Notes under the pieces: model-generated
Database searches by the model: none
Told to the model about the DNA's origin: nothing
What the model saw: only the letters and a program-made list of their open reading frames with translations
Shown here: piece by piece, positions 14,401 to 41,532 of the stretch
How positions within the stretch are numbered: the first letter of the stretch is position 1
Layout: each line of letters opens with the position of its first letter
Translations under genes and position numbers: made by a program
Source of the DNA: a virus
Reading direction: 5' to 3' (one strand)
Length of the DNA stretch: 63,125 bases
Virus genome (UHGV): UHGV-1373161

Positions 14401-14490
14401 TTGCGCCTGCGGGCGCTGCGCCCAGTCAGGCAGGCCATAAGACGGCTGCTGGACAAGATCCAGCTCAGACGGCAAAGAGTTTTTAGCCAC
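2431..14490 (-). CDS. Giant multidomain virion/ejection protein (4019 aa): SLT lytic transglycosylase, ParB-like domain, DExH helicase, N6-adenine/N4-cytosine MTase, ART-fold-like segment, HExxH, and a C-terminal TM-containing domain; DarB-like core
   Basis: Single uninterrupted ORF starting at GTG with a GAGGA SD; N-terminal AEQESSFNP (SLT), DGHHQWLAA (ParBc), GTGTGKT and DESH (helicase), VLEPSAGHG and NPPF (MTase), HELFH; sits in the ejection-protein position of the virion module. Confidence 0.85.
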   Translation of the reverse strand: MAKNSLPSELDLVQQPSYGLPDWAQRPQAQTVSTGGAVPFQAEFLSASQKYGVPFNVLMGLAEQESSFNPTAIGVPTKYGRAKGLMQYIDSTASRMGINPYDPVQSIDAAARQLRERLDKGYSMQEAVQAHFGGDDRKQWGPKTAQYGKDVLGRAEKFLGGGQSVAAGQPTQQQDQPQTRMGQIAQDYPPAQSAMENLEQTRQRTQALLDEMNKEEPGRYRPLTDEEMQQLSQHITPEMQQQAMQSGKPIEINIPDLVQPGQAVTAQQSVTQQPQKQPEGNKDGNLFTDALALLDSGFNTAAKDVQELVGKIPYIGKPIVDAADRFDRWANGKSSQELFKAYDESVERRLSPEMLAARRKSFVIEPGDDLGDGKKATGYNFGPAWSDPRAYMSGILESLPEMALTMGGSGRLAQMAYRRALASGASREVAAKAAARTATVAGGILEGSLGGAQSSRQVREDILKMKPEQLANSDAMKSLMDGGLSFEQARAQLAENASSQAFMLAGISTGIFGGMGDRALAKIITNRAGGRLKAAMAGAIGEGVFEEMPQSATQQMSQNYAMQQADPNTPLMKGVANQAAGGLAVGGLMGAGMGAAAPRVSESNPADQTQEDSGSSIPTVKFEDNGPPPGYTGEWRDGGPVITITEGNGQSSTEQPQEVKPSGPLGRALQAGVQQTTEDVAAQAQQNTAAAENHTPDEFMGPVGAETMVIPSDDLESAFPAVVQEYRNGNAVVADQNGEILEFGPHEVVRPDAAADVVQQQPAQAVNEPAQQVEQATEEQPRQPKAVSEMTEPELRDRLKYLHQQAKSSGGWNERLTKARREVEKEIDAKNAPVQGEIDTEAVQANGLTPSENRHLKELLNKDSRTQAESAEATRLNEKSRASLTEEVPQSTSENTVGAEGMTLVHGSGNGNLTLDDIQIVRANGQKQGKKGRVYGGFYGTSEKDSAQAEGYAGMMEGTPTVYDVKIKPGTKVFQKEGDITRLSENTINDLVSKGYGVVVGTDPRGRTEYAVIDKNAIQGISQRGKTQEQVASNEEQNPTLNKDGSQKWFGTERKANEYLQKKGITGTHEIRLVDRRFEIHAKGQDGTLTNEGTTEKAAPSKGKNGPRYNRVKKLLGAEEGDIVTPQEDIGYTTAGRQYRVYQIEKNGIVHLTNLETNGGTTVSLADLERANSRRSGFNRVEAVAEPAPASQKQQQSATSQADSAQELRERANKPKKEQISDLSGNRFEHKGEPLPSKGLVVAAMGNDGAVYVGKKNSVHFQLSQKHPFSERGEWKREGFVNPEGQFLTRSEALTWANRNEGVIKPSENMEGELDAMDYREQAGRRPVESVAEAAPAAQEKQQTGQEWQAFDSESGTLGIPRAEMPQVKAEHRGPMVNFLAARGVTHREGMVPADTLKPTQAEFSPERVARARESNSDRSILVSSDGYVLDGHHQWLAAREKGDNVKAIVLDAPIRDLLPLVHEFPSSLVDTSSASETAKVEPKTAETASIQPKTESEQAKSAQYGASNKLVSQDRAAELRKKLKAKFSQLNSGLDPEILAIGTELAVFHIEAGVRKFADFARAMSADLDVPISRLRPYLRGWFNGARDIMEDSGISIEGMDSHETVRAELAKLDQAPVKEEAPAQTAPKAENQAPVNQPAPASQARSTGSLDDMVNAFDNEVTPNVSGIRTGMEPDSRNAADAVSGNENPVLDGSGRNNRSDEQPGQRAEQERGIGQRDQRVSADGAASRREPGNQPIHQPDGQFESEGRAAGGTERSGSRSDSTARSPVEQQRRRAIVDNAHAAGAGDLASRLKAQKAAKGAPTTWADKASIDAALPLLLPEQRGDVLKIEQRHQVATGVLSTNGTGTGKTATGLGAAKRFYNAGKKNIAIVVPTDKVASDWVKFAGMMDMPLRQLSGIDDAGGSGPIVTTYANFGQNDALYSRQWDLIIPDESHYLSSNANGDSTAALDKLRGLTGHPEGFQHWLIGNNKELHDELTEQRAILNKMNSAQAGYQAQEQKVNRLTEQWQAIEQPARREWQQRWAEQRDLPKVVFLSATPFAYVKNTDYAEGYLFHHTPPAERYTENSTGGYNSANDRERFYMEHFGYRMRYNKLTQPEAGVNTELMEQNFNQWLKDTGALFGRRLDVPFDYDRRFQLIDDAAGKKLDDALRFLNEAENGIYRPIYDEVMRTFDYQRRMFLLESMKARAAVPVIREHLKLGRKVVVFHDYNQGGGFSPFAEALAEMKDLDMRSTASELFQRPMFRINFSGLDSAINTIKKAFPNVLLFNGTVSKGKRRQNADFFNADNSGKNLILVQSDAGREGVSLHDTTGKHQRVEINLGMPTRPVAATQIEGRIYRTGQASDAIFRYMTTGTSWEASTFASKIAERAATAENLALGEEARGLKQSFIDAYNEAEPMQASREDGKGGKERDQALSQNITPFDKAKTFYWAQQKNTKRRDQREGQDYFATPEPVGLKMVEWANIKPGDKVLEPSAGHGAIARFFPAQSDVTMVEPSYDLSQRAALANGTARIINGRFEDLSRANKFDAIVMNPPFGTGGKTAYEHLAKAAKHLRQGGRLVALVPRGGISERRFDQFFGGDEAKGLDLVARIKMPWVTFERAGTKVATEVLVFERHDKSDGSIIPVRPDLSSAQTINELFDRIEGLTLPERQPLTADEAIANAADGTMYSVPGEVVSHQTDTPAFKRWFEGSKVVDENGNPQVMYHGTPEDFTVFNTADRLADGSARNPMNDNIGAFFTSDRPDAEDFSARNASSSAASNIHDVYLAIKNPLVFEDQAEFRSYLRKNSREDMEKAGYDGVIINDVYEEDRAYEFDPDSDEYLNGPKTRWAIAFSPEQVKSASRNNGNFDSSNPDIRFSIAAARESLTEGSIGSAAKELLDAGRLELHSAPPAPEFLSAGGWIDPDGKIHLALYNLRPEDVQPTLMHELFHAGMRNIGGDRRWVNLMDRLGQYYRAAQNGGAKNEWTAAVERIQNAQRQGDRMNDAARDHVIEELGAYAVENFEKMPAGIRKWAESIIGAVKNYLQQTFGLQLGKVTPGQLRALAAGAIRNQKAPATSTSFSTPESSHPPKAAEKQSWFNQRWDEVADLPDNMLKTVMPALLRFTPGRFILKRVGKDIPALGRYADVKLQMDTLRDEWHAKTDQESQKWLKYRVSKPQENAELMGLMHDSTLAQVDPSKDFQSILNAIDLTALREKKRGDPAWDEANQKAQDDAKRKEEHGKLRERYNALSPEGKQIYNRVRDLYSRLADAQEQAIIDNMEKAMDIRSRQVRRKFEDEMQRITDEGLKGKDKEDAIAAAKKALNNGLRKDAWNRRARINQLRSEFESNRLAGPYFPLARFGDFFVTARKKGSGEVVSFSRTETAFAQTRLRKQLEKEGYDVETGIVSKSNDLRKQVPADFVARIEDLLKGIEGTQQTQDQVWQLYLQTMPDYSLRKSRIHRKGRAGFEEDALRAFASHMFHGSHQLARMKYSMELGDLIDQAEREAKRTRSPVRSGLVVEQARMNHDYVMNPTSNRISQVATQGAFMWYLAQSPAAALVNMSQTFIVAPAKLAAFYDKGAAAGIPVALGYLNRAMFDLGMGRTFAEKSARVTPEEKRAVSEAYRMGLITRTQSHDVAGIGDSGVKYSPTRAKLMAAMSFMFHHTERINREATFLAAYRMAKKRGLDPKNAIRKAADLTWDSHYDYQNSSRPAIMHSNVGKTLLVFRNYSLNMLADLAYTAYEMINPRNKQERREARTQMLGLGATLAFNAGIRGLPLYGLLMAIAGMFSDDDEDPEVELKKTMLQYFPKQMVGIMMDGVPGYLSGVELSGRIGFGDLWFRSDDMDREGDSQFLYWAMQVLGASTGIPYNWYRGVSQINDGYTWRGIETMVPKAIKDPMKAWRYYSEGVTTKNGDPIVDDLDGWNIFKQAMGFTPAKVTEQYKMNSYNMNKQTAITEERSKLLGDFYKAWKAGDEKKVDQITDKMRAYSEKYPEMRIDGDAVRSSLTRREKYRGSALGGMNYNQKLVPRLQEEQPGTVYR
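5491..5853 (-). other. Domain candidate: HExxH zincin-like motif (LMHELFHAG), aa ~2880-3000
   Basis: Single HEXXH motif in a predicted helix; no third ligand identified. Confidence 0.3.
5941..6423 (-). other. Domain candidate: H-Y-E type NAD-utilising ART fold (diphtheria toxin/ExoA/PARP/Tpt1-like), aa ~2690-2850
   Basis: VMYHGTPEDF (compare DT SYHGTKPG, ExoA GYHGT), then IGAFFTSD 31 aa later (compare GFYSTDN/GFYIAGD), aromatic +11, downstream acidic cluster VFEDQ/YEEDRAYEFD. Confidence 0.35.
6691..7173 (-). other. Domain: amino-MTase (N6-adenine or N4-cytosine), aa ~2440-2600
   Basis: Motif I VLEPSAGHGAIA followed by motif IV NPPF. Confidence 0.7.
7441..9003 (-). other. Domain: SF2 DExH helicase (SNF2/ResIII-like), aa ~1830-2350
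   Basis: Walker A GTGTGKT, DESH box, C-terminal QSDAGREG motif VI-like. Confidence 0.65.
10111..10365 (-). other. Domain: ParB/Srx-like nuclease domain (ParBc), aa ~1376-1460
   Basis: LKPTQAEFSPERV (box I-like) and ILVSSDGYVLDGHHQWLAAREKG (GHHR-like box II). Confidence 0.6.
14086..14358 (-). other. Domain: soluble lytic transglycosylase (SLT), aa ~45-135 of the giant protein
   Basis: GVPFNVLMGLAEQESSFNP...GLMQYIDSTA, with catalytic Glu in the ES motif; same position as the LT in T7 gp16-type ejection proteins. Confidence 0.7.
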
Positions 14491-31437: not shown

Positions 31438-32091
31438 TTACGCTTCGCTGATTGCGCGCTTCAGGTTGGCGGCAGTCATGCTCTTGGCCGGGTTACGCTT
31501 GAACACTTTCTTGTATTCAGCGCGCAGGGTTTCCAGCTCGTCTTCGGTGTCGATCTGGTCCGGGCCGTTAGAGGACTGCTCACCGGCATCGCCGCCGTTC
31601 TGACCAGCGTCGGCAGAATCATCGGCGCTGTCTTCGTCTTCGCCGTCTTCAGCAGCGGCAGGAGTTCCAGCGACAGCCGTAGGGGCGGCCGGTACAGTGG
31701 CCTGCAGCTCCAGCAGCACCTGGTCGATCCACTCGGTACGGTCTTCGTCGTCCAGCTCGTTCCATTCGTCCGGGGTCTTGCCGGAATCCTTCTGTGCCAT
31801 TTCAACAACGTCAGCCAGCTCGATGGTGCCGCCGGGGATATTGTAGATCGGGCTGTGAAGTGCGCTGGTTTTCAGGTCGATTTTAACGCGTGGCTTCTCT
31901 TCTTCCTGCTCGCCTTCAGCGGAGCGATAGCCCTCAGTGATGCGCAGCAGCGTGGAAATGTGAGAGGCTTCGACCACATCAGCGATATGGCGCGGATCGG
32001 ACTCGCTCGGCTTGAAATGGTACTCAACGCGCGGGGCTTCGAGCTGTACGCGGGAACCGCCAGGGCGATGGAGGATGCATTCAATTTTCAT
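31438..32091 (-). CDS. Acidic virion-module protein, 217 aa, with C-terminal HeH/SAP (Rho_N-like) motif
   Basis: Asp/Glu-rich central region; C-term ETLRAEYKKVFKRNPAKSMTAANLKRAISEA. Confidence 0.4.
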   Translation of the reverse strand: MKIECILHRPGGSRVQLEAPRVEYHFKPSESDPRHIADVVEASHISTLLRITEGYRSAEGEQEEEKPRVKIDLKTSALHSPIYNIPGGTIELADVVEMAQKDSGKTPDEWNELDDEDRTEWIDQVLLELQATVPAAPTAVAGTPAAAEDGEDEDSADDSADAGQNGGDAGEQSSNGPDQIDTEDELETLRAEYKKVFKRNPAKSMTAANLKRAISEA

Positions 32092-32142
32092 GGATATTCC
32101 TCGGAACGATGAAAAGACAGGGGCTTTCGCCCCTGCTGGTGA

Positions 32143-32607
32143 TTACTGCTGGTACTGCGCGATGGAGAGCAGCAGACCGATCTTCTTGCCTGCACCGGCG
32201 GTGACAGCTGCGGAGAACTTCACGCCGATGGAGCGGTCTTTCTGCGTCGGACCGACCAGCAGGGCGGCCGACTTCGCCAGCTGGGTAACTTCAGCGGTCA
32301 GCGCAGCAGCTGCGAACAGCTCGGTACCAACGGTACGGGCGGAACCGTCTTCGTTGGTCGGCTCACCGGTGAGGCCGGACATAAGGCCAACATCAACGGT
32401 CGCCGCGCCCAGGCTTCCCACCGTGATCAGCTTCGCATCAACGATGCGGGCATACGGAGGAAGGATCGCCAGCTCCAGAATATCGTTCGCAGCGATACCA
32501 GCTGCAGGAATATCCATGATGTACAGCTGGCTGTGCGTCGCAAATGCGGTCTGCGGACGCGCGGGCAACAGCATGCCGGTTGCCCACGGAGATTGAAACA
32601 GTGCCAT
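32143..32607 (-). CDS. Head-associated protein, 154 aa (decoration/accessory candidate)
   Basis: Immediately downstream of the major capsid gene. Confidence 0.4.
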   Translation of the reverse strand: MALFQSPWATGMLLPARPQTAFATHSQLYIMDIPAAGIAANDILELAILPPYARIVDAKLITVGSLGAATVDVGLMSGLTGEPTNEDGSARTVGTELFAAAALTAEVTQLAKSAALLVGPTQKDRSIGVKFSAAVTAGAGKKIGLLLSIAQYQQ

Positions 32608-32619
32608 GTGGTGATCCCC

Positions 32620-33723
32620 TTATGCTGCGTTCGGGTCTTTCGCTGCGGTGTCGATAGCCACCACGCCGAAATCGCGCTTGTTGAAACGGGTCTTGCTGAT
32701 GCCGATGATGGTACCGGCGGCAACAGACGGCTCGTTGTCGTAGTCAGCCAGCTTCTCTTTCCAGGTGAAGTTCAGGCCTTTGGTGGTGCCGTAAGCAACC
32801 ACACCAGCCTGGCGGCCCAGGAAGAGCGCGCGGGCGGCTTTGACGTTGGACGCTGCGCCGTAGTCGCTGAAGCGGATAACGTCGCGGTGCTTGTGCAGCA
32901 CGATATCATCGATCATGCCCAGGCCGCCTTTGAAGATGACGTTGGCTTTACCTTCAGCAGCGGCAGCGGCTTTCTGGATATCCAGCCAGCCCGCACCGGC
33001 TTCGGTACGCAGGTCAAACGCCTGGGTCGGGTTCATCACCAGCACGTAGTGGTCGCTTCCGCCGATAGGGATCGGGAGCAGGTTGGCGCTACGCGGGTCA
33101 AGCGCACGCATCATCGCTGCCTTATGGCTCGCCTTCTCAATCAGCAGGCGGGTCATTTTGTCGTCAGCGGTCAGGGTGGCTTTGCTGGTGGCGGAACCAC
33201 CAAACAGCAGGTGCTGGCCGTCCGGGGTGCGGATCGGGTTGCCTGCGTGCCCGGCGTAGTCGGACGGGAACGATTCATAGTTCTCGTTCATGCCGCGAGC
33301 GCCCGACAGGTAGATGAAGAACATCTGGTCGATGTACTGGCCCCACCATTCGGACAGGCGTTTTTTCGCAACGTCACGCAGATCGTGAGCGGTACGCTTG
33401 CGGGTCATCTTGCCGCCGCAGGAAACAGACTTACGCAGCTGGTCAATGATGATTTCGTCGGAGAAGAACTTCAGCTGTTCTTCGTTGCCTTCCAGACGCT
33501 GGTCGCCGGAAACCGGGCCGCCGCGTAACTGGACGGAGAGATCGAAGCTAATGCGGTCGCCCACGTCAGCATCGAGTTCGGTCTTGCGCTGGATTACTGC
33601 GTCATCACCTTTACCGATGAATTTTTCCCAGTAGCTCTTCCCCAGCGTTTCCGCGTAGAGACGCGCCGACCATTTTTTCTGCGCCTGGACATCATTGCCC
33701 CAGGTGATAGTGGTTTGGCTCAT
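32620..33723 (-). CDS. Major capsid protein, 367 aa
   Basis: Follows the scaffold gene; size and composition typical of HK97-fold podophage coat proteins. Confidence 0.65.
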   Translation of the reverse strand: MSQTTITWGNDVQAQKKWSARLYAETLGKSYWEKFIGKGDDAVIQRKTELDADVGDRISFDLSVQLRGGPVSGDQRLEGNEEQLKFFSDEIIIDQLRKSVSCGGKMTRKRTAHDLRDVAKKRLSEWWGQYIDQMFFIYLSGARGMNENYESFPSDYAGHAGNPIRTPDGQHLLFGGSATSKATLTADDKMTRLLIEKASHKAAMMRALDPRSANLLPIPIGGSDHYVLVMNPTQAFDLRTEAGAGWLDIQKAAAAAEGKANVIFKGGLGMIDDIVLHKHRDVIRFSDYGAASNVKAARALFLGRQAGVVAYGTTKGLNFTWKEKLADYDNEPSVAAGTIIGISKTRFNKRDFGVVAIDTAAKDPNAA

Positions 33724-33802
33724 AATGTGCCCTCAAGAACGTGCGGTGTGTCGGGATCGCCGCACGTCTTGCGCAGCATTACGTTTCGATTATCGAATGA
33801 CT

Positions 33803-33821
33803 GTTGCTGAAATGCAAACAC
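33803..33821. promoter_or_regulatory. Palindrome-family variant GTTGCTgaaatGCAAACAC upstream of the coat gene
   Basis: Shares 17 nt (GAAATGCAAACACTCA) with site 40586-40603 and the left arm with the GTTGCT-N5-AGCAAC family. Confidence 0.45.
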
Positions 33822-34031
33822 TCATGTCATGGCAATGGCTGTTTTGCTTGGAATGTCAACCTCCTGTTGCCCCTCTACAGCGCCGGGGCGCTTATCGCAG
33901 TGAATAATTACGCTTTCCGGCGCTTCGATTATAAAGCTGCACCGTTTACCGGCCTTCTTCACCATACGCACGGTTGCGTCGCCAATTTTCAGCACGTCGC
34001 CCTCGCGCAAATCGAATTTAAGTGCCCCCAC
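33822..34031 (-). CDS. CsrA-like small RNA-binding protein, 69 aa
   Basis: GTG start with AGGAG SD 8 nt upstream; aligns to CsrA: LREGDVLKIGDATVRMV..SFIIEAPESVIIH vs VGETLMIGDEVTVTV..RIGVNAPKEVSVH. Confidence 0.5.
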   Translation of the reverse strand: MGALKFDLREGDVLKIGDATVRMVKKAGKRCSFIIEAPESVIIHCDKRPGAVEGQQEVDIPSKTAIAMT

Positions 34032-34042
34032 GCTGTTTCTCC

Positions 34043-34966
34043 TTATCGACGGGTGTATGCGTCGTATTCGTCGGCGCTCATGCGGGCGATAGTCTCCTGG
34101 TACTTCTGAGGATCGCTATCAGCCATGCGGTCGAGCGCTGCGAACTTGCCATCGTCGGTATCTTCCGGCGCGGCGGCTGGCACCTTCGCCAGTGTCGGGG
34201 GGATATCCAGCGCCTTTTGCTGCTGCTTCGGCTGCTGCTGGGCCGCCTGCTCCTGCTTCGGATTTTCGCTCGCCGGTTTCGGCGGTGCAATTCCGCGCTC
34301 ATCGGCCCAAATGCGATACGCCCGCTCAAGGTCAGCTTCACCATAGCGAAGGCCTTGCTCTGCCTTTGCCTTTGTGATGCTCTGCACCAGCAGGTCGAGG
34401 GCTTTAAAGTCCTCTTCGCTGGCGTAAATTTCAGGGTGACGCTCAGCAAACGCCTTCACATCGGCCTGCCACTGGCGCTCGATCTGCTGTTCGACGCTTT
34501 CGCGGTTCAACTCGTCTTTACGCTGCTGCCAGTCCAGATCCCCGCGCTCTTTGTTCAGCTCGCGCAGCTGGGCATTATATTCGCGGGTGGTAAGCTCGCC
34601 CTCTTCGAACTTCTCGATCAGCTCTTCTTCGCGCTTATCGATATCGTCATACTTAGCCTTCAGCTCTTCGGTTGCCACCGGCTTAAATACCGGCTGCGGC
34701 ACCGGTGCTTCAGGCTGCTGGGCTTTCTGCTGCTCCTGTTGGCCCTGCTGCTCTTCCTGCTGCTGCTCTTCCGGCTTCCCATCTTTCTCCGGATCTGGCT
34801 TTTTGTCCGGATCGGTGTCCTGCTCTTCTTCCTGCTGTTGTTGCTGCTGGGCGGCAACCTGATCCAAATCTACCTCCTGGTGCTCGGAATCACTATCCGG
34901 CGCTTCCAGGGCGGCGCGCTCTTCTTCGGTCAGGTTAGCCAGAATGCTTTCATCGATATCAGCCAT
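34043..34966 (-). CDS. Scaffolding protein, 307 aa
   Basis: Highly charged Gln/Glu/Lys-rich coiled coil between portal and coat. Confidence 0.55.
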   Translation of the reverse strand: MADIDESILANLTEEERAALEAPDSDSEHQEVDLDQVAAQQQQQQEEEQDTDPDKKPDPEKDGKPEEQQQEEQQGQQEQQKAQQPEAPVPQPVFKPVATEELKAKYDDIDKREEELIEKFEEGELTTREYNAQLRELNKERGDLDWQQRKDELNRESVEQQIERQWQADVKAFAERHPEIYASEEDFKALDLLVQSITKAKAEQGLRYGEADLERAYRIWADERGIAPPKPASENPKQEQAAQQQPKQQQKALDIPPTLAKVPAAAPEDTDDGKFAALDRMADSDPQKYQETIARMSADEYDAYTRR

Positions 34967-34973
34967 AATTTCC

Positions 34974-37316
34974 TCACTGCTGGGGTTGTGGTTGAGGCAG
35001 GCCAGCGGGCTGCTGTTCCTGCTGTTGCTGCTGGGCGGCCTGTTCCTGCTGGGCCTGTTGCTCCTGCATAGCCTGCTGCTCGGCAGCGGCTTGCTGTTGC
35101 TGCTCGGCCTGCATCACTGCAGCCTGGCGGGCTTCTTCCTCGCCTTCTGTCCGCGAGAGGAAGCTGGATTCATGGAGAATGTTGTCTGCTACCGGAACGG
35201 CGGCAGGTTGTGACAGCGCCATAAGTGCGGCTTCCAGCGCAGCTTTTTGGGTATTGACGTTCTGACCGGCCATTGATGCGAGGATCTGCTGTGCCTGCGC
35301 CTGCTCTTTGCCAGCTGACGCGGCGTTTTTCTGCGCATTGCTCTGTTTGAGCGCGGCGTCCGCCTCGTCTTTGGCAATGGCGGCCAGCTGTGCCCGCTGC
35401 TGCAGCTCTGCCTGCGCCTGCTTGGCCTTCTCGGCGGCAATCTCTTCCGGGGTCGGCTCTTCGGCGTCCGGGTCGCGCATACCAGTGACCTGGCGGATAC
35501 GCTTAACCAGCTCTTCACGGCTGGTGATATCCATCCCTTCGACCAGAATATCCATCATGACCAGTGCCAGCTGCGGTGCTACCGGTGCCAGCTGCTGCAG
35601 CAGGCCGAAAAGCTCTTCGGTCTGCGCCTGGCGGATGGTATTACGCCAGTCTTCTTCGCCAATGACGAAATCAGCCTTCGAGCGAATGATATCATTGTCC
35701 GGATCCCCATCGTTGATGGTGATGTATTCCGGGGTATTGCGCATGTTCGTGATGCGGAATTGCTTCTCTTCGCTGTAGAACTGTTCGATGGCGGATAGCA
35801 GCTTCTCACCATGCACCTGGACGGCATAACGCAGGTTGTCGAAGATAAGCGCCGTAGCCAGACCGCCCTGCTCCTGGCGCGCCGTGATGGCCTTACCGCT
35901 TGATGCGTTCGTTTGGCGGCCCAGGTTCTCATCGGTGACGCCGGAAACCTGCTGAATCATGCCGATAGCTTGGCTCATCATTTGCAGGTGAGAGGCCGCA
36001 AGCTCACGGTCAGCGTTGATGATTAGCTCTTTGCCTTGTTTCTTGACGATAACGGCATCCGGCCGGGCAACCTCTTCCCTGAACTCGTCCAGATCGTCTA
36101 CAGCACCCTCGTCCATGATGGTTTTGTTCGTGGATATGATATGCAGCGCCTTACTGGCACGCTTATTGATATCTTCCTGCATGTCGCGCAGGTTACGGAT
36201 CACGCCATACGGCAGCTTGTCGCGACCACGGCGATAGCACCAGATAGGCGTAAACGGGTATGAGTTGTGCCGGTACGGGCTTGGTCCATCCCAAAGCATG
36301 CCACCGACGCAGAATATTGAGACGCGCATACGCATGGCGCGGGGAATAGTGACCGGATATCCTCGCTGAGCCTCAATGTCAGCCTGGTGGCCGGGTGCCG
36401 GGTCATCCGGGTCGTAGATCTCGCCGTTGAAGTCGCCACCGCGCATTTTTTCCACTTCTTCGGTGACTTTGTGCCAAGCCTCGATGATGCGGACCCGCTC
36501 GCGCTTGAAGGTGGTGACGGCATTGCGGTAGTGCGATGTCTCGTTGAGGCGTTCCTGGCTGTCGGAAGCGTCGTCTCCGTAGTCGTCGATCTCCCAGTCA
36601 TTGGCAGCGCGCGCACACATGCGCAGCAGTCCAGCACGGTCAGGGAACATCGCTTCGGCTACATCGAGATCCACCCACTTAAAGCGGAACACATAGCGGG
36701 CGTCTGACAGGTCCGGCTCTGTGCAGGCGCTATCCCACAGGATGTTTCGCCAGCTCTCGTAGCGGTCATAGACCGGCTCGCCGTCTTCAGGCTGCTGCAG
36801 GCCTTCTTCCATCCAGCCTACGCCTACCTTCGTGCAATCCTCAAAAGCCCGGCTGCGGTGGAATGGTGAGCGGTTGATGTCGCTCAGATACTTCATGAGC
36901 TGGGTCTTGCGCTCTGCGGCCTTACCGGCATCTTTCCGGCGCGGCAGGATTTTCCAGTCCGTGCGTCCGCGCTTTTCGGTGCCGATGATCCAGTTGATGC
37001 TGGTGGCAATGACGTTATAGACCAGCGGCACCTGCCCGCGCTCTCTCAGCGCTGCTGCGTCCTGCTCACGCCACTGGATGCCATCATAGAAATCTTCGTC
37101 CCTGGCCTGCTGCTGGCGGTTATCTGCCTGACGGGCCAGCTCATCCTGGAATATTCCCAGGAGGCGCGCATAGCGATTGACCATATCGGGATGGTCTAAT
37201 TCATGGTCGGGTTTCCCGCGCTCTTCCTCGCTGGCGTATGCTGCGTCTGGTAAGTCATCGAGCGGCACATGTCTGGCGTCGCGCAGGTCAAAGCCCGTAT
37301 CTGGTTTATCAAACAC
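34974..37316 (-). CDS. Portal protein, 780 aa, with long Gln-rich C-terminal helical extension
   Basis: Size and position after terL; C-terminal AAAEQQAMQEQQAQQEQ barrel-like tail as in P22-type portals. Confidence 0.7.
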   Translation of the reverse strand: MFDKPDTGFDLRDARHVPLDDLPDAAYASEEERGKPDHELDHPDMVNRYARLLGIFQDELARQADNRQQQARDEDFYDGIQWREQDAAALRERGQVPLVYNVIATSINWIIGTEKRGRTDWKILPRRKDAGKAAERKTQLMKYLSDINRSPFHRSRAFEDCTKVGVGWMEEGLQQPEDGEPVYDRYESWRNILWDSACTEPDLSDARYVFRFKWVDLDVAEAMFPDRAGLLRMCARAANDWEIDDYGDDASDSQERLNETSHYRNAVTTFKRERVRIIEAWHKVTEEVEKMRGGDFNGEIYDPDDPAPGHQADIEAQRGYPVTIPRAMRMRVSIFCVGGMLWDGPSPYRHNSYPFTPIWCYRRGRDKLPYGVIRNLRDMQEDINKRASKALHIISTNKTIMDEGAVDDLDEFREEVARPDAVIVKKQGKELIINADRELAASHLQMMSQAIGMIQQVSGVTDENLGRQTNASSGKAITARQEQGGLATALIFDNLRYAVQVHGEKLLSAIEQFYSEEKQFRITNMRNTPEYITINDGDPDNDIIRSKADFVIGEEDWRNTIRQAQTEELFGLLQQLAPVAPQLALVMMDILVEGMDITSREELVKRIRQVTGMRDPDAEEPTPEEIAAEKAKQAQAELQQRAQLAAIAKDEADAALKQSNAQKNAASAGKEQAQAQQILASMAGQNVNTQKAALEAALMALSQPAAVPVADNILHESSFLSRTEGEEEARQAAVMQAEQQQQAAAEQQAMQEQQAQQEQAAQQQQQEQQPAGLPQPQPQQ

Positions 37317-37740
37317 GTTCGATTACCTCAGAGTGATGGGTTTTCCCTGTGTCGTGGTCGGTGCGGAATGCATCTGCGACGACGACGCCGGTTGTCGGCT
37401 TGGGAGGGATAGCGATCAGGTCGCCCAGGTGGTCATGAATGAGGGTTACTATCTTCATGGCGGCGAACACGTTGCCGGTGTCCATGTTGTTCATATCGAG
37501 GAAGGCCATGCACATGACGCGGTTCAGTTGCGGCATTGCCTGGGGGTCTTCCGGGTTCCACTGCCAGGCGTCATCGAGGTCGATAATCAGCGGGCGGCAG
37601 CGGTCAGCACCGATGCGATAGGTTGGAACAACAACGAGGCACGGCTGATGCTCGACCCCGTACCATGTACCGTAAATGGTCAGATCCCCGCGCGTATGCA
37701 CGAAATGGTACTGAGTCAGGTCTAAAACGTGCTCTGCCAT
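37309..37740 (-). CDS. Hypothetical protein, 143 aa, between terL and portal
   Basis: ORF overlapping the portal start by 8 nt; palindrome site A just upstream. Confidence 0.4.
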   Translation of the reverse strand: MAEHVLDLTQYHFVHTRGDLTIYGTWYGVEHQPCLVVVPTYRIGADRCRPLIIDLDDAWQWNPEDPQAMPQLNRVMCMAFLDMNNMDTGNVFAAMKIVTLIHDHLGDLIAIPPKPTTGVVVADAFRTDHDTGKTHHSEVIERV

Positions 37741-37771
37741 GATTGCCCTCTGTTGCGTTTATGTCTTATGC

Positions 37772-37788
37772 GTTGCCAGTATAGCAAC
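37772..37788. promoter_or_regulatory. 17-bp palindrome site A (GTTGCCagtatAGCAACac)
   Basis: In the 53-nt gap between the terL stop and the 143-aa gene. Confidence 0.55.
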
Positions 37789-37793
37789 ACTTA

Positions 37794-39413
37794 TCACACA
37801 GCCATACCCGAAGTATTTCGTCTCGGCTTCGCCTTTGTGCGGCGGCGGCCAGCGTTCGGGTCTGATCCGTACACCTGCGCCCACTGACGGAAGGCGTCGG
37901 CGGCCTCACTGTGACCGTCGTCTTTCTCCGGCTGGTCGGTGAAAGTCTGCATTCTGGCATTATATTTTTTCCGGTAGCTATCCAGGTGAGCAACGCCCTC
38001 TTTGCAGGCATCCTTATCGATCCAGGCTGTTGCCATCATGTTCCTGGTAATCTGGATGCCGTGCTGCAGCTCGCTGACGCGCTCAACGATCTCGATGCGG
38101 CGGCGGCCTTCCTTCTCCAGCATTTCTTTCGGCGTCAGGTTGGCATTCTGCCCCTGCCGTACATGGTTGCCGTCGTGAGGCAGATAGTCGGTGCCCCAAA
38201 CGTACCCCAGCTTGTCCAGCTCCCGGACGTAATAGCCGTATGGTTCGTCCCAGCCCTCAATGAAGCCGATAAATCGATGCTCCTGCCCAATGTGCTGGTG
38301 CAGCCAGATAGCCGTTCCGTCGCCACTGCCGATGTCCCAAAACGTGTTGACGGGATAGCCAGGCGTATACGGTACGGTGGTAAGGCGCTTCTCCTTGCGC
38401 ATCTTGACCATCTGTTTGGTGTAGTAGCAGCCCTCGGTCGATTTCTGGAAAGCCTCTTCCGGCGAGCTGGGGTATTCCTGCCACATCTTTTCGTCCTGGC
38501 CGGAATAGACGTTATCACGCGTGCTCACCCACCATGCCCGCTGCTCGATATCGATCATGGTGTCCATTTTGGCTTCTATCTCGTCAAAATATTCGTGCTC
38601 TGTCTTCGAGATATCGACCAGCTCCGGATCCATGCGGTACTGCATGTCCTCCCACCAGGGATAGAAGTGGAAGGCGAACTCCTTGTTCGTGAGCCTGCGC
38701 CCCAGGGCGGCAATCTTCTGCGCACGCTGGCACATCATGAAGAACTCGCCTTCCCGGCCTTCAGCGGTGGACTCGATGAAAATCATGCCCATTTCAGCCG
38801 CCGGGATTGAGCCGGTCACTACCTCATTGGCGCGGTCAGGGAACTTGGCGCAGATTTTACCGAACTCGGAAATGTGCAGGTGGGTCAGCGTACCGCCACG
38901 GAATGAGGTGGCAACGCTCACCTTGCTGCCGTTGTGGGCGAATTCCAGCGCGTCGGCGCGGTCGCGTACCAGCGGCATCACCGCACGCAGAACATCCGGC
39001 AGGTTGTCATAGCCGAACTTCACCTTGTCCCTGAATATCTCCTCAGCCATGTCCTGGTTATGCGCTACGATAGCCGCTGTCGTCGGGTTATTGGCTGGGG
39101 CGAACAAAGCACAGTCGAGAAACAGGATGGCGATGAACGTCGTGAAGCCCAGCTGGCGCGCCTTTAAGATGATGTTGCGCTTGTGCAGTCTCTTCAGCAG
39201 CTTCCGCTGCGCCCGGTTCGGCTTGAATGGCACAATACGGACTTCGCTTTCATCCTCTTCCCCGAACTCATCTCGCGGTTTGGTCTTGATTTTGTACAGC
39301 TGCCCGGAACACAGCCTCCAGTATGGGTCACTGAGGCACTGGAACAGCTCGTCATCGTTCGATGGCACGAAATCGAGCGGCACTGAGCCGGGTTTAGCCG
39401 CCTGCAAACTCAT
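37794..39413 (-). CDS. Terminase large subunit
   Basis: 540 aa from ATG 39413 (MSLQAAK) with GAGGGGG SD; Walker-A-like ARQLGFTTF; C-terminal nuclease acidic residues. Confidence 0.8.
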   Translation of the reverse strand: MSLQAAKPGSVPLDFVPSNDDELFQCLSDPYWRLCSGQLYKIKTKPRDEFGEEDESEVRIVPFKPNRAQRKLLKRLHKRNIILKARQLGFTTFIAILFLDCALFAPANNPTTAAIVAHNQDMAEEIFRDKVKFGYDNLPDVLRAVMPLVRDRADALEFAHNGSKVSVATSFRGGTLTHLHISEFGKICAKFPDRANEVVTGSIPAAEMGMIFIESTAEGREGEFFMMCQRAQKIAALGRRLTNKEFAFHFYPWWEDMQYRMDPELVDISKTEHEYFDEIEAKMDTMIDIEQRAWWVSTRDNVYSGQDEKMWQEYPSSPEEAFQKSTEGCYYTKQMVKMRKEKRLTTVPYTPGYPVNTFWDIGSGDGTAIWLHQHIGQEHRFIGFIEGWDEPYGYYVRELDKLGYVWGTDYLPHDGNHVRQGQNANLTPKEMLEKEGRRRIEIVERVSELQHGIQITRNMMATAWIDKDACKEGVAHLDSYRKKYNARMQTFTDQPEKDDGHSEAADAFRQWAQVYGSDPNAGRRRTKAKPRRNTSGMAV

Positions 39414-39439
39414 CGCGCCCCCTCGAAAAGCAACGATGT

Positions 39440-39470
39440 GAAGATATTGCACAGAAAACCGCTATAATGC
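39440..39470 (+). promoter_or_regulatory. Candidate promoter of the XRE gene (perfect TATAAT at 39462-39467)
   Basis: TATAAT 45 nt upstream of ATG 39512; the -35 is weak or ambiguous (TTGCAC at a 10-nt spacer). Confidence 0.3.
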
Positions 39471-39511
39471 GGTGAGGCAAGTGCATTTATTTCACTTTGA
39501 GGATATCGAAT

Positions 39512-39730
39512 ATGGGCGGATTTGAACTGAAACTCTGGCGCAATGGCCTGGGCTGGTCCCAGGAACGGGCAGCTGAAGAGCTGGGAGTGAGCAGACGGAC
39601 TTACCTTACGTGGGAACAGAAAGGCACCTCCCGCGTGGTCGAACTTGCCACGCAGGCGCTGTCCATCAAAGCCGAATGGCCTGAAACCGCCAAAAAGCTG
39701 AATAGGCTGTCCACTCTCGCGAAACACTAA
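39512..39730 (+). CDS. XRE-family HTH regulator, 72 aa, antisense between terS and terL
   Basis: GAGGA SD 7 nt upstream; LGWSQERAAEELGVSRRTYLTWEQKG is a canonical HTH_3; stop overlaps the terS stop convergently. Confidence 0.5.
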   Translation: MGGFELKLWRNGLGWSQERAAEELGVSRRTYLTWEQKGTSRVVELATQALSIKAEWPETAKKLNRLSTLAKH

Positions 39731-40509
39731 GTATCCTCTTTGTCCTGCTTAACTGGGGTGATAAGCGCGCCGGGCAGCTGCTGTAGCAGAACTTGCAATG
39801 GGTTCTGCTCATCCCCTTTAAGTGTCAGCTTATCATTGAACATGCCCAGGTGCCTCGCAATCTGGTCGAGCGCTGCTTTCTGGTCATGCATTTTTACTTC
39901 CAGCCCCTCTTTCGACTGCTTCACGCCTGCGAATAGAGCCAGCGCTGCCGGTGAAAGGTTGCGGGTGTCCTGAAAGTAGGTGCTCAGATGGCCGTCGCCG
40001 TGACACTCCGGGCATTTGGCGTGCGGAGAGAGTGAGGAGTCGAATCCATAACCACCTTCATCGGTGATATCGCGTGGCGGCCTATCTTCCTGTTGTGCTG
40101 CCATAGCCTCGCGCGCTTTGGCGTTCTCGAACTCGGCCTCATCCTTCCACTGGAATGCATGGTCAATGCCATAGCAGTGACGGCAGCACGTCCGGCGCAG
40201 CTGTGTCAGCTCGTTCGGGTTGGCGGTCGCTATCATCCAGTACCGCTGTAACACCATGTCCTGGGTGATTTTGGTGCGCTCTGAGCGCTTCTCCATGCCA
40301 GCCAGGATCGCAGCGTAGACCAGAGGCTTCACCTTACCATTGCTGACCCACATGTAGGCTTTCGTTCGGGCAACGGTGGCGCTATAACCGGCCGCAAGTG
40401 CAGCCCGTTCCGGTGACAAATCGATTAGATATTCGTCCACAAAGCGTTTATCGCGTGCTGATAGCTTTGTGGCCTTTGCTGTAGGCGTCTTGGTTTGTTT
40501 CCTGTTCAT
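39727..40509 (-). CDS. Terminase small subunit (Terminase_2/P27-like)
   Basis: KRFVDEYLIDLSPERAALAAGYS motif; first gene of the late operon. Confidence 0.7.
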   Translation of the reverse strand: MNRKQTKTPTAKATKLSARDKRFVDEYLIDLSPERAALAAGYSATVARTKAYMWVSNGKVKPLVYAAILAGMEKRSERTKITQDMVLQRYWMIATANPNELTQLRRTCCRHCYGIDHAFQWKDEAEFENAKAREAMAAQQEDRPPRDITDEGGYGFDSSLSPHAKCPECHGDGHLSTYFQDTRNLSPAALALFAGVKQSKEGLEVKMHDQKAALDQIARHLGMFNDKLTLKGDEQNPLQVLLQQLPGALITPVKQDKEDT

Positions 40510-40589
40510 AACGTGTCCTTGCGGGTTGACATATCCGCATGCATCGGGAATCGCTCCCGGATCGCTTTGTTGCGATTGTAGAAACAGGG

Positions 40590-40607
40590 GTTACGAAATG
40601 CAAACAC
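40590..40607. promoter_or_regulatory. Palindrome-family variant GTTACgaaatGCAAACAC in the terS / plus-island divergent region
   Basis: 17-nt identity with 33806-33824; overlaps the start codon of 40598 and lies about 80 nt upstream of terS. Confidence 0.4.
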
Positions 40608-40864
40608 TCAAGCCGATAGATGGGCGGTGGCTTTACTGGCAGCAGGTAGACCTGGCAAACGGTGTTTTCCGTGTGCAGGGCGCTGAATGGCGTACGGAAT
40701 GTCCAGACTTAACCGAATGGGTTGACTGGACCGGTTCGGCGCAGCTGGAAGAAGAGATCGGCCTGGCTCTCGATATGCTTGGCGCGTACATGCTTGGTAA
40801 ATGGGTTGGCTTCGGACGGACGATAGACGGCATCTGTCATGGTATAGCCTGGATGGTGTCCTGA
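40598..40864 (+). CDS. Hypothetical protein, 88 aa (first gene of the plus-strand island)
   Basis: ATG with AGGGGT SD; Trp-rich, no known motif. Confidence 0.4.
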   Translation: MQTLKPIDGRWLYWQQVDLANGVFRVQGAEWRTECPDLTEWVDWTGSAQLEEEIGLALDMLGAYMLGKWVGFGRTIDGICHGIAWMVS

Positions 40865-41008
40865 TGCGTGACCACTATTGTCCGTGGATAGGCAACACTT
40901 GCTAAGCGCTTTGTTGCCATATCGCACCATCTGATTGCATATTTACAATACTTTTCTGGCGTTACCGCTAACGCTATATTATGATTACCTTGTACCGCGC
41001 AATATGCG

Positions 41009-41019
41009 CCAATAACAAC
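41009..41019 (+). promoter_or_regulatory. Leader motif CCAATAACAAC, 12 nt upstream of the 41032 start
   Basis: Same 11-mer precedes the starts at 57587 and 58137. Confidence 0.4.
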
Positions 41020-41031
41020 GAGGTAACACCC

Positions 41032-41355
41032 ATGACTACCGAATGCACCGCTCTGCGTACTGATGGCTTTATAACCAATATCAAATCACGCAATCCATTC
41101 GATGTTATCCGCGCCGATGTAGTGCTGGAACGGCTGCATAAGCAGGCTTACCAGGGCTGTGGCCTGTACTATGAGATTTATGAGGCCCGGCTGTTAGGTA
41201 TGGCCATCGCCCATCTTGAATTGCTGCCTCAGAAAGACCGTCAGACGTTCATCGCTGCAGCTGAAAAGAAAGGTTTCACGCTGAGCATGGAAGAGCTGGA
41301 ACGCGCTGACGAAGCGCGTGCAGATGTTATGAGAGAAATTCGAGCTGATTACTGA
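41032..41355 (+). CDS. Hypothetical protein, 107 aa
   Basis: ATG with GAGG SD. Confidence 0.45.
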   Translation: MTTECTALRTDGFITNIKSRNPFDVIRADVVLERLHKQAYQGCGLYYEIYEARLLGMAIAHLELLPQKDRQTFIAAAEKKGFTLSMEELERADEARADVMREIRADY

Positions 41356-41367
41356 GCAGGTGCCAAC

Positions 41368-41532
41368 ATGCCAAAATTACCAAGCGTTTTCCCGATTATT
41401 CATGACCACGGCACTGATGCCAAAGGCGCGGAGCGTCACTGCCTGTCACTGGTGAAAGGCGGCTGGTCTGCAAAACTTGTGCGCCCTGCCGGTCGCGGCT
41501 GGCGCGTCGTTATCTCCGGATATCGCGGATAA
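41368..41532 (+). CDS. Small basic protein, 54 aa, not in the ORF track
   Basis: MPKLPSVFPIIHDHGTDAKGAERHCLSLVKGGWSAKLVRPAGRGWRVVISGYRG; weak SD. Confidence 0.25.
   Translation: MPKLPSVFPIIHDHGTDAKGAERHCLSLVKGGWSAKLVRPAGRGWRVVISGYRG

Follow-up and report, generated by a model that had tools for sequence, protein, structure and literature searches.

What does a relative of the RNA-binding regulator CsrA do in the head-gene cluster of a phage? The question is raised by a 69-codon open reading frame (ORF) at 33822-34031 on the minus strand of virus genome UHGV-1373161, whose whole stretch of 63,125 nucleotides (nt) is called the window here. On the comparisons described below, the product may be a phage-autonomous post-transcriptional regulator of late mRNAs that acts through a motif shared by the capsid and endolysin leaders. 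A probability of roughly 0.45 is assigned to this reading. The figure refers to the target, and activation as the sign of the effect is held less firmly.

Judged by its DNA, the source phage is a Klebsiella Lastavirus, a Bcep22-like podovirus, with 96.4% identity to Klebsiella phage SopranoGao over region 32000-37500 and 93-94% to LASTA, SJM3 and vB_KpnP_ZX1. The order on the minus strand is large terminase gene, a gene of 143 amino acids (aa), portal gene, 307-aa gene, 69-aa ORF, a 98-nt spacer and major capsid gene. The features needed for the argument are as follows.

34974-37316, minus strand: portal gene
34043-34966, minus strand: putative scaffold gene, 307 aa, acidic and Q/E-rich (PHROG 8246, function unknown)
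34039-34044, minus strand: Shine-Dalgarno (SD) sequence AAGGAG of the CsrA-like gene, 7 nt before its GTG start and sharing bases with the stop codon that ends the putative scaffold gene
33822-34031, minus strand: CsrA-like gene, 69 aa, with a beta-core (residues 1-45) and a variable tail (residues 46-69)
32620-33723, minus strand: major capsid protein gene (PHROG 334, N4 gp56 family)

A sequence-only reading of this DNA had placed the ORF between the scaffold and coat genes and had credited it with a strong SD sequence. Both statements hold. The scaffold identity of the 307-aa gene is putative, on the basis of position and composition; its product had no Pfam match.

Identity of the gene product

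With 61 ORFs of at least 40 aa within 8 kb, the size of the CsrA-like ORF is by itself no evidence for a gene. This GC-rich DNA has many small ORFs, and a chance ORF in a spacer, without function, would be one explanation of the locus. It is refuted by conservation and is given next to no weight. The ORF is intact in all relatives, and the order portal, putative scaffold, CsrA-like gene and major capsid gene is kept across five phage genera, namely Lastavirus, Parlovirus (Serratia), Ittyvirus and Skulduggeryvirus (both Pseudomonas) and Lessievirus (Burkholderia). Among Lastaviruses the ratio of nonsynonymous to synonymous substitution rates (dN/dS) is 0.22-0.26, and a value of about 0.25 points to purifying selection. 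An alignment of the five genera, used as query, retrieved 138 clustered relatives of 55-70 aa, many of them on contigs of about 60 kb, and a profile search of genome contigs with a smaller alignment gave only 2 prophage loci. A CsrA-like hit at E ≤ 1e-3 was found within 700 nt upstream in 88 of 114 capsid loci, and most of the others have a more divergent copy. By these comparisons, together with the SD sequence and the confident fold described next, the 69-codon ORF is confirmed as a real gene.

As a single sequence, the product matched Pfam PF02599 at E=0.0095 (16.3 bits, below the 27-bit gathering cut-off) and CsrA chains in the PDB at E of about 1. PHROG 8397, "CsrA-like regulator", was matched at E=3.7e-13, with residues 3-62 aligned to positions 2-61 of the 64-position profile. 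Matches to PF02599 at E ≤ 0.01 were obtained for 57 of 60 sampled relatives (best 8.5e-11). When a profile of the 60 relatives was compared with the PDB, the nine best hits were CsrA/RsmE (4.5e-9 to 3e-6), and only CsrA chains fell below E=0.1. The alignment along CsrA that the sequence-only reading had quoted was reproduced by HMMER; the family profile (4.5e-9) and structure prediction agree with it.

An AlphaFold2 model, built on the relatives' alignment, has a predicted local distance difference test (pLDDT) value of about 90 for residues 1-45; it is a monomer, CsrA itself being an interleaved dimer. A CsrA beta-core was modelled, and the 14 best PDB matches found by Foldseek were all CsrA/RsmA/RsmE (root-mean-square deviation 0.9-1.7 Å over 44-46 residues; template modelling score (target) 0.54-0.80). 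Profile and model support a CsrA homologue with the predicted CsrA five-stranded beta-core, so that the failure of fold prediction named by the sequence-only reading as a refutation did not occur. No confident C-terminal alpha-helix follows beta5 in the model; residues 46-69 have pLDDT values of 50-73, and this tail varies between lineages of the family. An AbrB/SpoVT-type fold (PHROG 5527, E=0.0035 only) and matches to PolD DP2 (E about 1) were rejected, since the fold search gives only CsrA above noise. Weak Pfam matches to FlbT, a regulator of flagellin translation, occur in 9 of 60 family members (best E 0.0011).

The annotation itself adds nothing new. The RefSeq label "CsrA-like regulator" is carried by the orthologues of SopranoGao, LASTA, Parlo, Itty13, BcepMigl and Skulduggery, and a 2020 survey listed 30 phages with CsrA homologues, including SopranoGao gp25, Parlo, Bcep22, BcepIL02, BcepMigl and DC1 (PMC7366521). 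The window protein is a new allele of this known phage family, for which no functional study was found in literature searches. As far as these searches show, the conserved covarying leader of the capsid and endolysin genes, and its co-variation with the residue equivalent to CsrA Arg44, are undescribed.

The capsid-gene leader

According to the sequence-only reading, the protein might control the translation ratio of the scaffold and coat messages that flank its gene. The scaffold part of this proposal found no support: the scaffold-like gene starts 7 nt after the portal stop codon and has no leader. The coat part found partial support. The capsid gene is preceded by a conserved, covarying leader that is predicted to sequester the ribosome-binding site (RBS) and has a 5' arm resembling a CsrA site.

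33721-33787, minus strand: capsid-gene leader hairpin, -27.7 kcal/mol, z -3.5
33762-33774, minus strand: 5' leader motif GCGCAAGACGUGC, able to form a 4-bp mini-hairpin with loop AAGAC or, alternatively, a helix in which 33760-33770 pairs with 33735-33746

In the window, the AUG and the 3' end of the GAGGG SD sequence (33730-33734) lie within the outer helix of the hairpin (33776-33782 with 33722-30). The inner 3' arm (33735-33746) abuts the SD sequence, which is covered only partly, its last base being paired.

Capsid loci were gathered by capsid-protein similarity, independently of the CsrA-like gene, and yielded 83 distinct leaders. In all but one of them, GCGCA-N-GA-(N)-GUGC precedes the capsid AUG by about 50 nt. 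Comparison of the leaders supports two mutually exclusive pairings of this motif, a long helix and a mini-hairpin.

In the long helix, N-GA-(N)-GUGC pairs with a segment beside or overlapping the SD sequence and AUG. Examples are GGAAGUGCC/GGCACUUCC-AUG, GGAGCUGCC/GGUAGCUCC, AAGAUGUGC/GCACAUCU and CAUGAUGU/ACAUCAUG, the last pair including the start codon. In a MAFFT-only alignment of 24 leaders, a seed set that had been chosen for carrying an optional motif base, 85.7% of cells were paired compared with 19-51% for slid partners. One pair of the helix shows UA, GC, CG and AU in this alignment, and the covariation score of 0.273 (versus 0.10) was reached by 0 of 500 shuffles. For 61 model-aligned leaders the figures were 83% paired and 38 double-change cells, counts biased towards the structure of the model. 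Single-sequence folds had a mean z of -2.8, with the motif pairing into the last 22 nt before the AUG in 77 of 82. Because loops and spacers differ in length, the long helix escaped RNAalifold on the plain MAFFT alignment of all 83 leaders, which gave only a GCG/UGC mini-stem; hence the use of a more uniform subset and a covariance model. The covariance model, built from the 24-leader alignment, found 59 capsid leaders in 403 kb, with only four weak other hits. Rfam gave no match in 33000-41500 at E ≤ 1.

The mini-hairpin, GCGC/GUGC around a loop A-N-G-A-(N), has 97.6% pairing, and three of its four pairs are preserved in all rare variants. The changes are G-C to A-U or U-A and C-G to A-U, and the variants read ACGC...GUGU, UCGC...GUGA, GAGC...GUUC, GCAC...GUGC and GCGC...GCGC. 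In 8 leaders the fourth pair (columns 48/54) does not form. That GUGC must pair with two partners would explain why the motif is invariant in sequence while neighbouring helix positions covary.

The mini-hairpin shares the architecture of CsrA sites, which present A(N)GGA in the loop of a stem no longer than 4 bp; the CsrB repeat reads CAGGA(U/A/C)G (PMC7652899). Leaders of the GGA class read CAGGA(U/A/C/G)G. The window leader has GCGCAAGACGUGC, and no GGA is present in the 125-nt spacer region of the window. With the motif blocked in silico across all leaders, the probability that the RBS is unpaired rose from 0.37 to 0.52; with an adjacent segment blocked it was 0.44.

A (U)YAAC(C) element recurs in many capsid leaders; it lies towards the 3' side of the loop and precedes the SD sequence by 15-20 nt. 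A TGCGG-N-CCGCA hairpin, considered as a repeated element, was dropped because it is at chance level in the window (5 found, 4.4 expected). One-mismatch hits of the motif at 4078, 13575, 26920, 40186, 43046 and 61338 lie within coding sequence and were taken as chance.

A second copy of the motif

Within the window, the two best hits of the covariance model were the capsid leader and then the leader of the endolysin gene (2172-2213).

1605-2177, minus strand: endolysin gene, N-acetylmuramidase (PF11860, E 5.8e-59)
2175-2232, minus strand: endolysin leader hairpin, -25.3 kcal/mol, z -2.9, in which the motif pairs with the AUG
2201-2213, minus strand: second copy of the motif, GCGCAAGACGUGC, within the endolysin leader

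The two leaders share 25 identical nt (2192-2216 in the endolysin leader, 33753-33777 in the capsid leader). The endolysin gene has its own cassette of terminator, promoter and leader (2165-2300, minus strand), and the shared 25 nt stand between the terminator of a 4019-aa gene and the endolysin gene. In SopranoGao the endolysin leader is arranged as in the window, and the endolysin leader of Parlo carries the motif as GCGCUGGACGUGCGG. Over the whole BcepMigl genome, the capsid leader is the one leader with the full motif, and the lysis leader is without it, so the second copy is lineage-specific. A motif on two unlinked late leaders fits a trans-acting factor.

The 4019-aa ORF before this cassette is a single frame (2431-14490, minus strand) that in relatives is labelled a DarB-like antirestriction protein. 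It is followed by a strong intrinsic terminator at 2280-2303.

Co-variation of protein and leader

In nearly all capsid loci the CsrA-like gene lies directly upstream of the leader, including divergent copies missed by the first hidden Markov model search. The link between protein and leader is indirect, and is drawn from this adjacency, from the resemblance to CsrA sites and from co-variation between the two partners.

RNA binding by CsrA depends most critically on L4 and Arg44, and neither binding nor regulation survives the R44A change (PMC7652899). In the window protein the equivalents of these residues are Phe6 (Ile or Leu in relatives) and Cys45, respectively. Across 118 relatives, the R44 position is R in 77, K in 13, G in 21 and C in 4. 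The R7 position stays Arg or Lys in the same set and is Arg9 in the window protein.

Residue and leader were compared at 78 distinct loci. Where the leader has GGA, the R44 position is Arg or Lys in 41 and another residue in 1. With a non-GGA leader (AGA or UGA), Arg or Lys is found in 6 and another residue in 30, distributed over 11 residue types that include Gly, Cys, Asn, His, Leu, Ile, Val, Thr and Glu. Most GGA loci form one clade of the capsid tree, and the changes counted on it by Fitch parsimony number 5 and 6. Few contrasts are independent: Skulduggery (L007), with GGA and Arg amid Gly/Val neighbours, agrees with the association. L011, with GGA and Ser, disagrees. The signal that remains is a difference in constraint, the position being basic and invariant in the diverse GGA group and free elsewhere.

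Among the sampled phages, the pairing also differs with the host. Phages of Burkholderia hosts lacking csrA keep the canonical pair (Arg with CAGGAUG). Where hosts have their own CsrA/Rsm (Klebsiella, Serratia, P. aeruginosa), three of four sampled phages have altered both partners (Cys/Gly/Lys with AGA); the exception is Skulduggery, on P. fluorescens. With both partners altered, the phage pair might be shielded from the Csr network of the host.

These observations bear on another idea of the sequence-only reading, titration or mimicry of host CsrA. The protein would bind host GGA mRNAs or the small RNAs CsrB/CsrC, as mimic or competitor, and reprogram host translation late in infection. Homology and fold fit such a role, and CsrA homologues do occur on phages and plasmids, phage carriage correlating overall with host carriage (PMC8450108; PMC7366521). 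Nevertheless, the residue at the Arg44 position is Cys, the C-terminal helix is missing, and identity to host CsrA is about 30% compared with 55% (to E. coli CsrA) for host-like phage RsmM/CsrA types. B. cepacia and B. cenocepacia have no chromosomal csrA, and the syntenic gene is retained in phages of such hosts (PMC7366521). That many genera keep the gene at a fixed site before the capsid leader suggests a role internal to the phage. Mimicry of host CsrA is the least supported idea and is regarded as very unlikely.

Proposed mechanism and its alternatives

We infer both the binding of the protein to the leader RNA and an activating effect. The CsrA-like gene, last cistron of the portal-scaffold unit, would be translated at a low level from its GTG start. 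Its product would bind the GCGC-ANGAN-GUGC stem-loop located 5' in the capsid leader and, in the window phage, in the endolysin leader. Held in a protein-bound mini-hairpin, the motif could no longer pair with the ribosome-binding region; the SD sequence and AUG would be freed, and translation would be activated in the style of ymdA, where CsrA opens an SD-sequestering hairpin (PMC7492729; PMC7652899). Translation of the capsid (and lysis) protein would in this way be tied to prior expression of portal and scaffold, and coat synthesis would follow that of scaffold and portal.

Activation is favoured because the RBS of the most abundant late protein is closed and the putative regulator is the last, poorly initiated cistron. 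With the capsid AUG sequestered, and the SD sequence in part, in a hairpin of -27.7 kcal/mol, an activator is called for. The start codon of the CsrA-like gene is GTG in the window (34029-34031); among the loci of the five genera that were checked (window; L004-L007, L019) it is GTG or TTG in most and ATG in some, which suggests deliberately low translation.

The same leader might be bound with the opposite result. The protein would then repress or buffer capsid translation until free capsid or scaffold protein bound its C-terminal tail and released the mRNA, giving coat homeostasis in the manner of CsrA, FliW and flagellin. Like csrA in flagellar operons, the CsrA-like gene belongs to the structural operon that holds its putative target, and FliW binds a C-terminal extension of CsrA (PMC7652899), a part of the protein where a lineage-specific tail replaces the helix here. 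A single JC1 virion peptide suggests contact with capsid components, and GGAG in the capsid SD sequence of some relatives would permit a two-site bridge. Set against this, the RNA structure alone already closes the RBS, to which a repressor adds little, and a second GGA site at the SD sequence is not conserved (GAGGG or AAGGC in many). No FliW-like partner was seen, and no search was aimed at one. Repression of this kind is considered unlikely.

Several points weigh against the proposed mechanism, in addition to the selected seed set, the alignment bias, the clade structure and the discordant L011 given above. Across the 118 relatives, the CsrA R6 position is Leu or Ile and T5 is Asp or Glu. 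Canonical recognition is doubtful in the window phage because Cys stands at the Arg44 position and the leader has AAGAC, not GGA; canonical GGA recognition cannot be assumed for this pair, and RNA binding may have been lost. In the minimum-energy fold the motif is base-paired, a state that lowers the affinity of canonical CsrA (PMC7652899). Six capsid loci (L099, L100, L112, L124, L129 and L131) have the motif with no CsrA-like gene within 1.5 kb of full upstream flank; there is no scaffold-like gene within 1.5 kb upstream of them either. The long hairpin could instead be a substrate of RNase III. Finally, one peptide of the JC1 orthologue, whose gene was considered a moron in that study, was obtained from purified virions (PMC9144972).

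Loss of RNA recognition together with RNase III processing of the hairpins is the main rival. In this account, the protein of the window lineage no longer binds RNA, the CsrA fold is kept for a protein-binding, assembly or virion role, and the leader hairpins are opened by host RNase III, another phage factor or ribosome standby. Besides Cys45, it can draw on the 30 of 36 non-GGA loci with a non-basic residue of many types at that position, as if constraint had been lifted, on the six loci with the motif and no nearby CsrA-like gene, and on the JC1 peptide. The hairpins, of about 20 bp and interrupted, are long enough for RNase III. Cys31 and Cys45 (codons 33939-33941 and 33897-33899) are constant in 7 of 7 Lastavirus-type alleles amid varying neighbours, as is the triplet His44-Cys45-Asp46, and a disulfide or metal site is conceivable. 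Purifying selection nevertheless acts on the gene (dN/dS 0.25), which retains the fold residues as well as Arg9, the equivalent of CsrA R7. RNase III fails to explain the invariance of GCGCA..GA..GUGC beside freely covarying helix positions, and the motif has been duplicated onto a second late leader in precisely these lineages. This account too is judged improbable as a whole.

Regulation of the capsid and endolysin leaders by the CsrA-like protein can be extended to a more general, and clearly more doubtful, proposal. Bcep22-like phages would carry a self-contained two-part module, consisting of a minimal CsrA-fold protein and a three-element leader switch (GCGC / GUGC / GCAC-UC), that serves as a morphogenetic checkpoint and in which Arg44 and GGA co-evolve. 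As part of the same tentative proposal, the switch would sit on the major capsid mRNA and would have been copied to the endolysin mRNA in Lastavirus and Parlovirus.

Comparison with known systems

CsrA, RsmA and RsmE (PF02599; PDB 1Y00, 2JPP, 1VPZ) are alike to the window protein in the beta-core of about 45 residues, which superposes at 1.0-1.7 Å, with equivalents of G9, IGD, G27, AP, V40 and V42 in common and homology at the profile level. The window protein differs from them in having no C-terminal helix, in Leu for R6, Asp for T5 and Cys for R44, in its identity of about 30%, and in being fixed in a phage head-gene cluster. Its orthologues in PHROG 8397 (Bcep22 gp, BcepMigl gp35, JC1 gp47, Parlo gp62, Itty13 gp22, SopranoGao gp25 and LASTA gp20) are equal to it in size, in position between portal/scaffold and capsid genes and in RefSeq label.

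The nearest mechanistic likeness is activation by CsrA at ymdA (E. coli) and hmsE (Yersinia pestis), where an SD-sequestering hairpin likewise has a CsrA site in or beside its 5' arm and binding opens the RBS (PMC7492729; PMC7652899). The putative regulator here would, in contrast, be encoded by the phage and serve one or two leaders only, and the window site is without GGA. A GGA site in or beside the 5' arm, of the ymdA type, is present in the GGA-class relatives (CAGGAUG and similar). In the CsrA-FliW-flagellin system of Bacillus subtilis and Campylobacter, CsrA is also encoded in an assembly operon and controls the main structural subunit; there, CsrA represses by SD occlusion and FliW antagonises it (PMC7652899). 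CsrA homologues are also found on other mobile elements, as CsrA/RsmM of Pseudomonas phages (F116, H66 and others) and CsrT of a Legionella integrative and conjugative element. The phage RsmM types are close copies of bacterial CsrA (55% to E. coli CsrA), and neither RsmM nor CsrT was reported in a head-gene position (PMC7366521).

If the proposed regulation is true, a phage-encoded CsrA relative would be dedicated to structural-gene translation, and head assembly and lysis would be ordered in a simple way, in parallel to the flagellar CsrA-FliW checkpoint. Pairs of residue 44 and loop (Arg with GGA, Cys or Gly with AGA, Asn or His with UGA) would form a natural series for changes in CsrA-type RNA specificity, and matched protein and leader pairs could act as orthogonal translational switches. 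The conserved leader makes the function of the CsrA-like gene directly testable.

Late promoters and the shared 16-mer

The sequence-only reading had noted a shared element immediately downstream of the CsrA-like gene. The 16-mer GAAATGCAAACACTCA does occur exactly twice in the window, at 33809-33824, where it overlaps the CsrA-like stop codon, and at 40595-40610. On the minus strand, each copy supplies the -35 part of a sigma-70-like promoter, and the element is not a protein operator.

33789-33818, minus strand: sigma-70-like promoter TTTGCA-18-GATAAT of the capsid gene, with its -35 within the 16-mer at 33809-33824
40575-40604, minus strand: sigma-70-like promoter TTTGCA-18-TACAAT of the small terminase gene, with the 16-mer at 40595-40610
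39727-40509, minus strand: small terminase gene

One promoter-like site was found per region, against 0.1-0.2 expected, and equivalent promoter hexamers lie at the same place in other genera. The small-terminase leader shares the promoter but is without the leader motif, and is not unusually structured (z -0.6).

In the small-terminase leader, UGUCAACCCGCAAGGACAC resembles the 3' half of capsid leaders of the Itty13 type. In each of the window's three late promoters, a conserved CG(A/C)AAC comes after the -10 hexamer. The lysis-gene promoters of Klebsiella and Burkholderia phages (2240-2275 in the window; 30545-30585 in L150) have TTGTGGTTATG...CAAC...(T/C)A(A/C)AATCG in common.

The window allele and variant loci

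The window protein is 75-78% identical to published Lastavirus proteins. Its gene has 82% DNA identity to that of SopranoGao and a synonymous rate (dS) of 0.52, compared with 97-99% and 0.06-0.12 for the flanking scaffold-like and capsid genes. Positive selection behind the divergent allele was rejected, since dS is raised too. The raised dS indicates that the gene is a recombination patch, a mosaic replacement, and not a fast-evolving protein; in this it differs from the other PHROG 8397 members, its flanks being 96-99% identical to published Lastaviruses. The spacer 3' of the gene is 100% identical in four Lastaviruses save for one SopranoGao substitution, and the middle of the gene differs at many sites. 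Two metagenomic proteins, P0001 and P0002, are intermediate.

The position of the gene varies in a few loci. L012, L021, L024 and L037 belong to a distant group with about 28% identity in the capsid protein, and there the capsid gene is followed some 1.7 kb downstream by the PHROG 8397 gene (for example L024, 2447-2683). It stands directly before a small ORF and an endolysin gene (PHROG 315), and so neighbours lysis genes and not the capsid gene. Two loci have an extra gene between the CsrA-like and capsid genes, of 201 aa in L011 (2471-3553) and 578 aa in L038 (2498-4689). Despite the insertion, the promoter and leader remain with the capsid gene in both.

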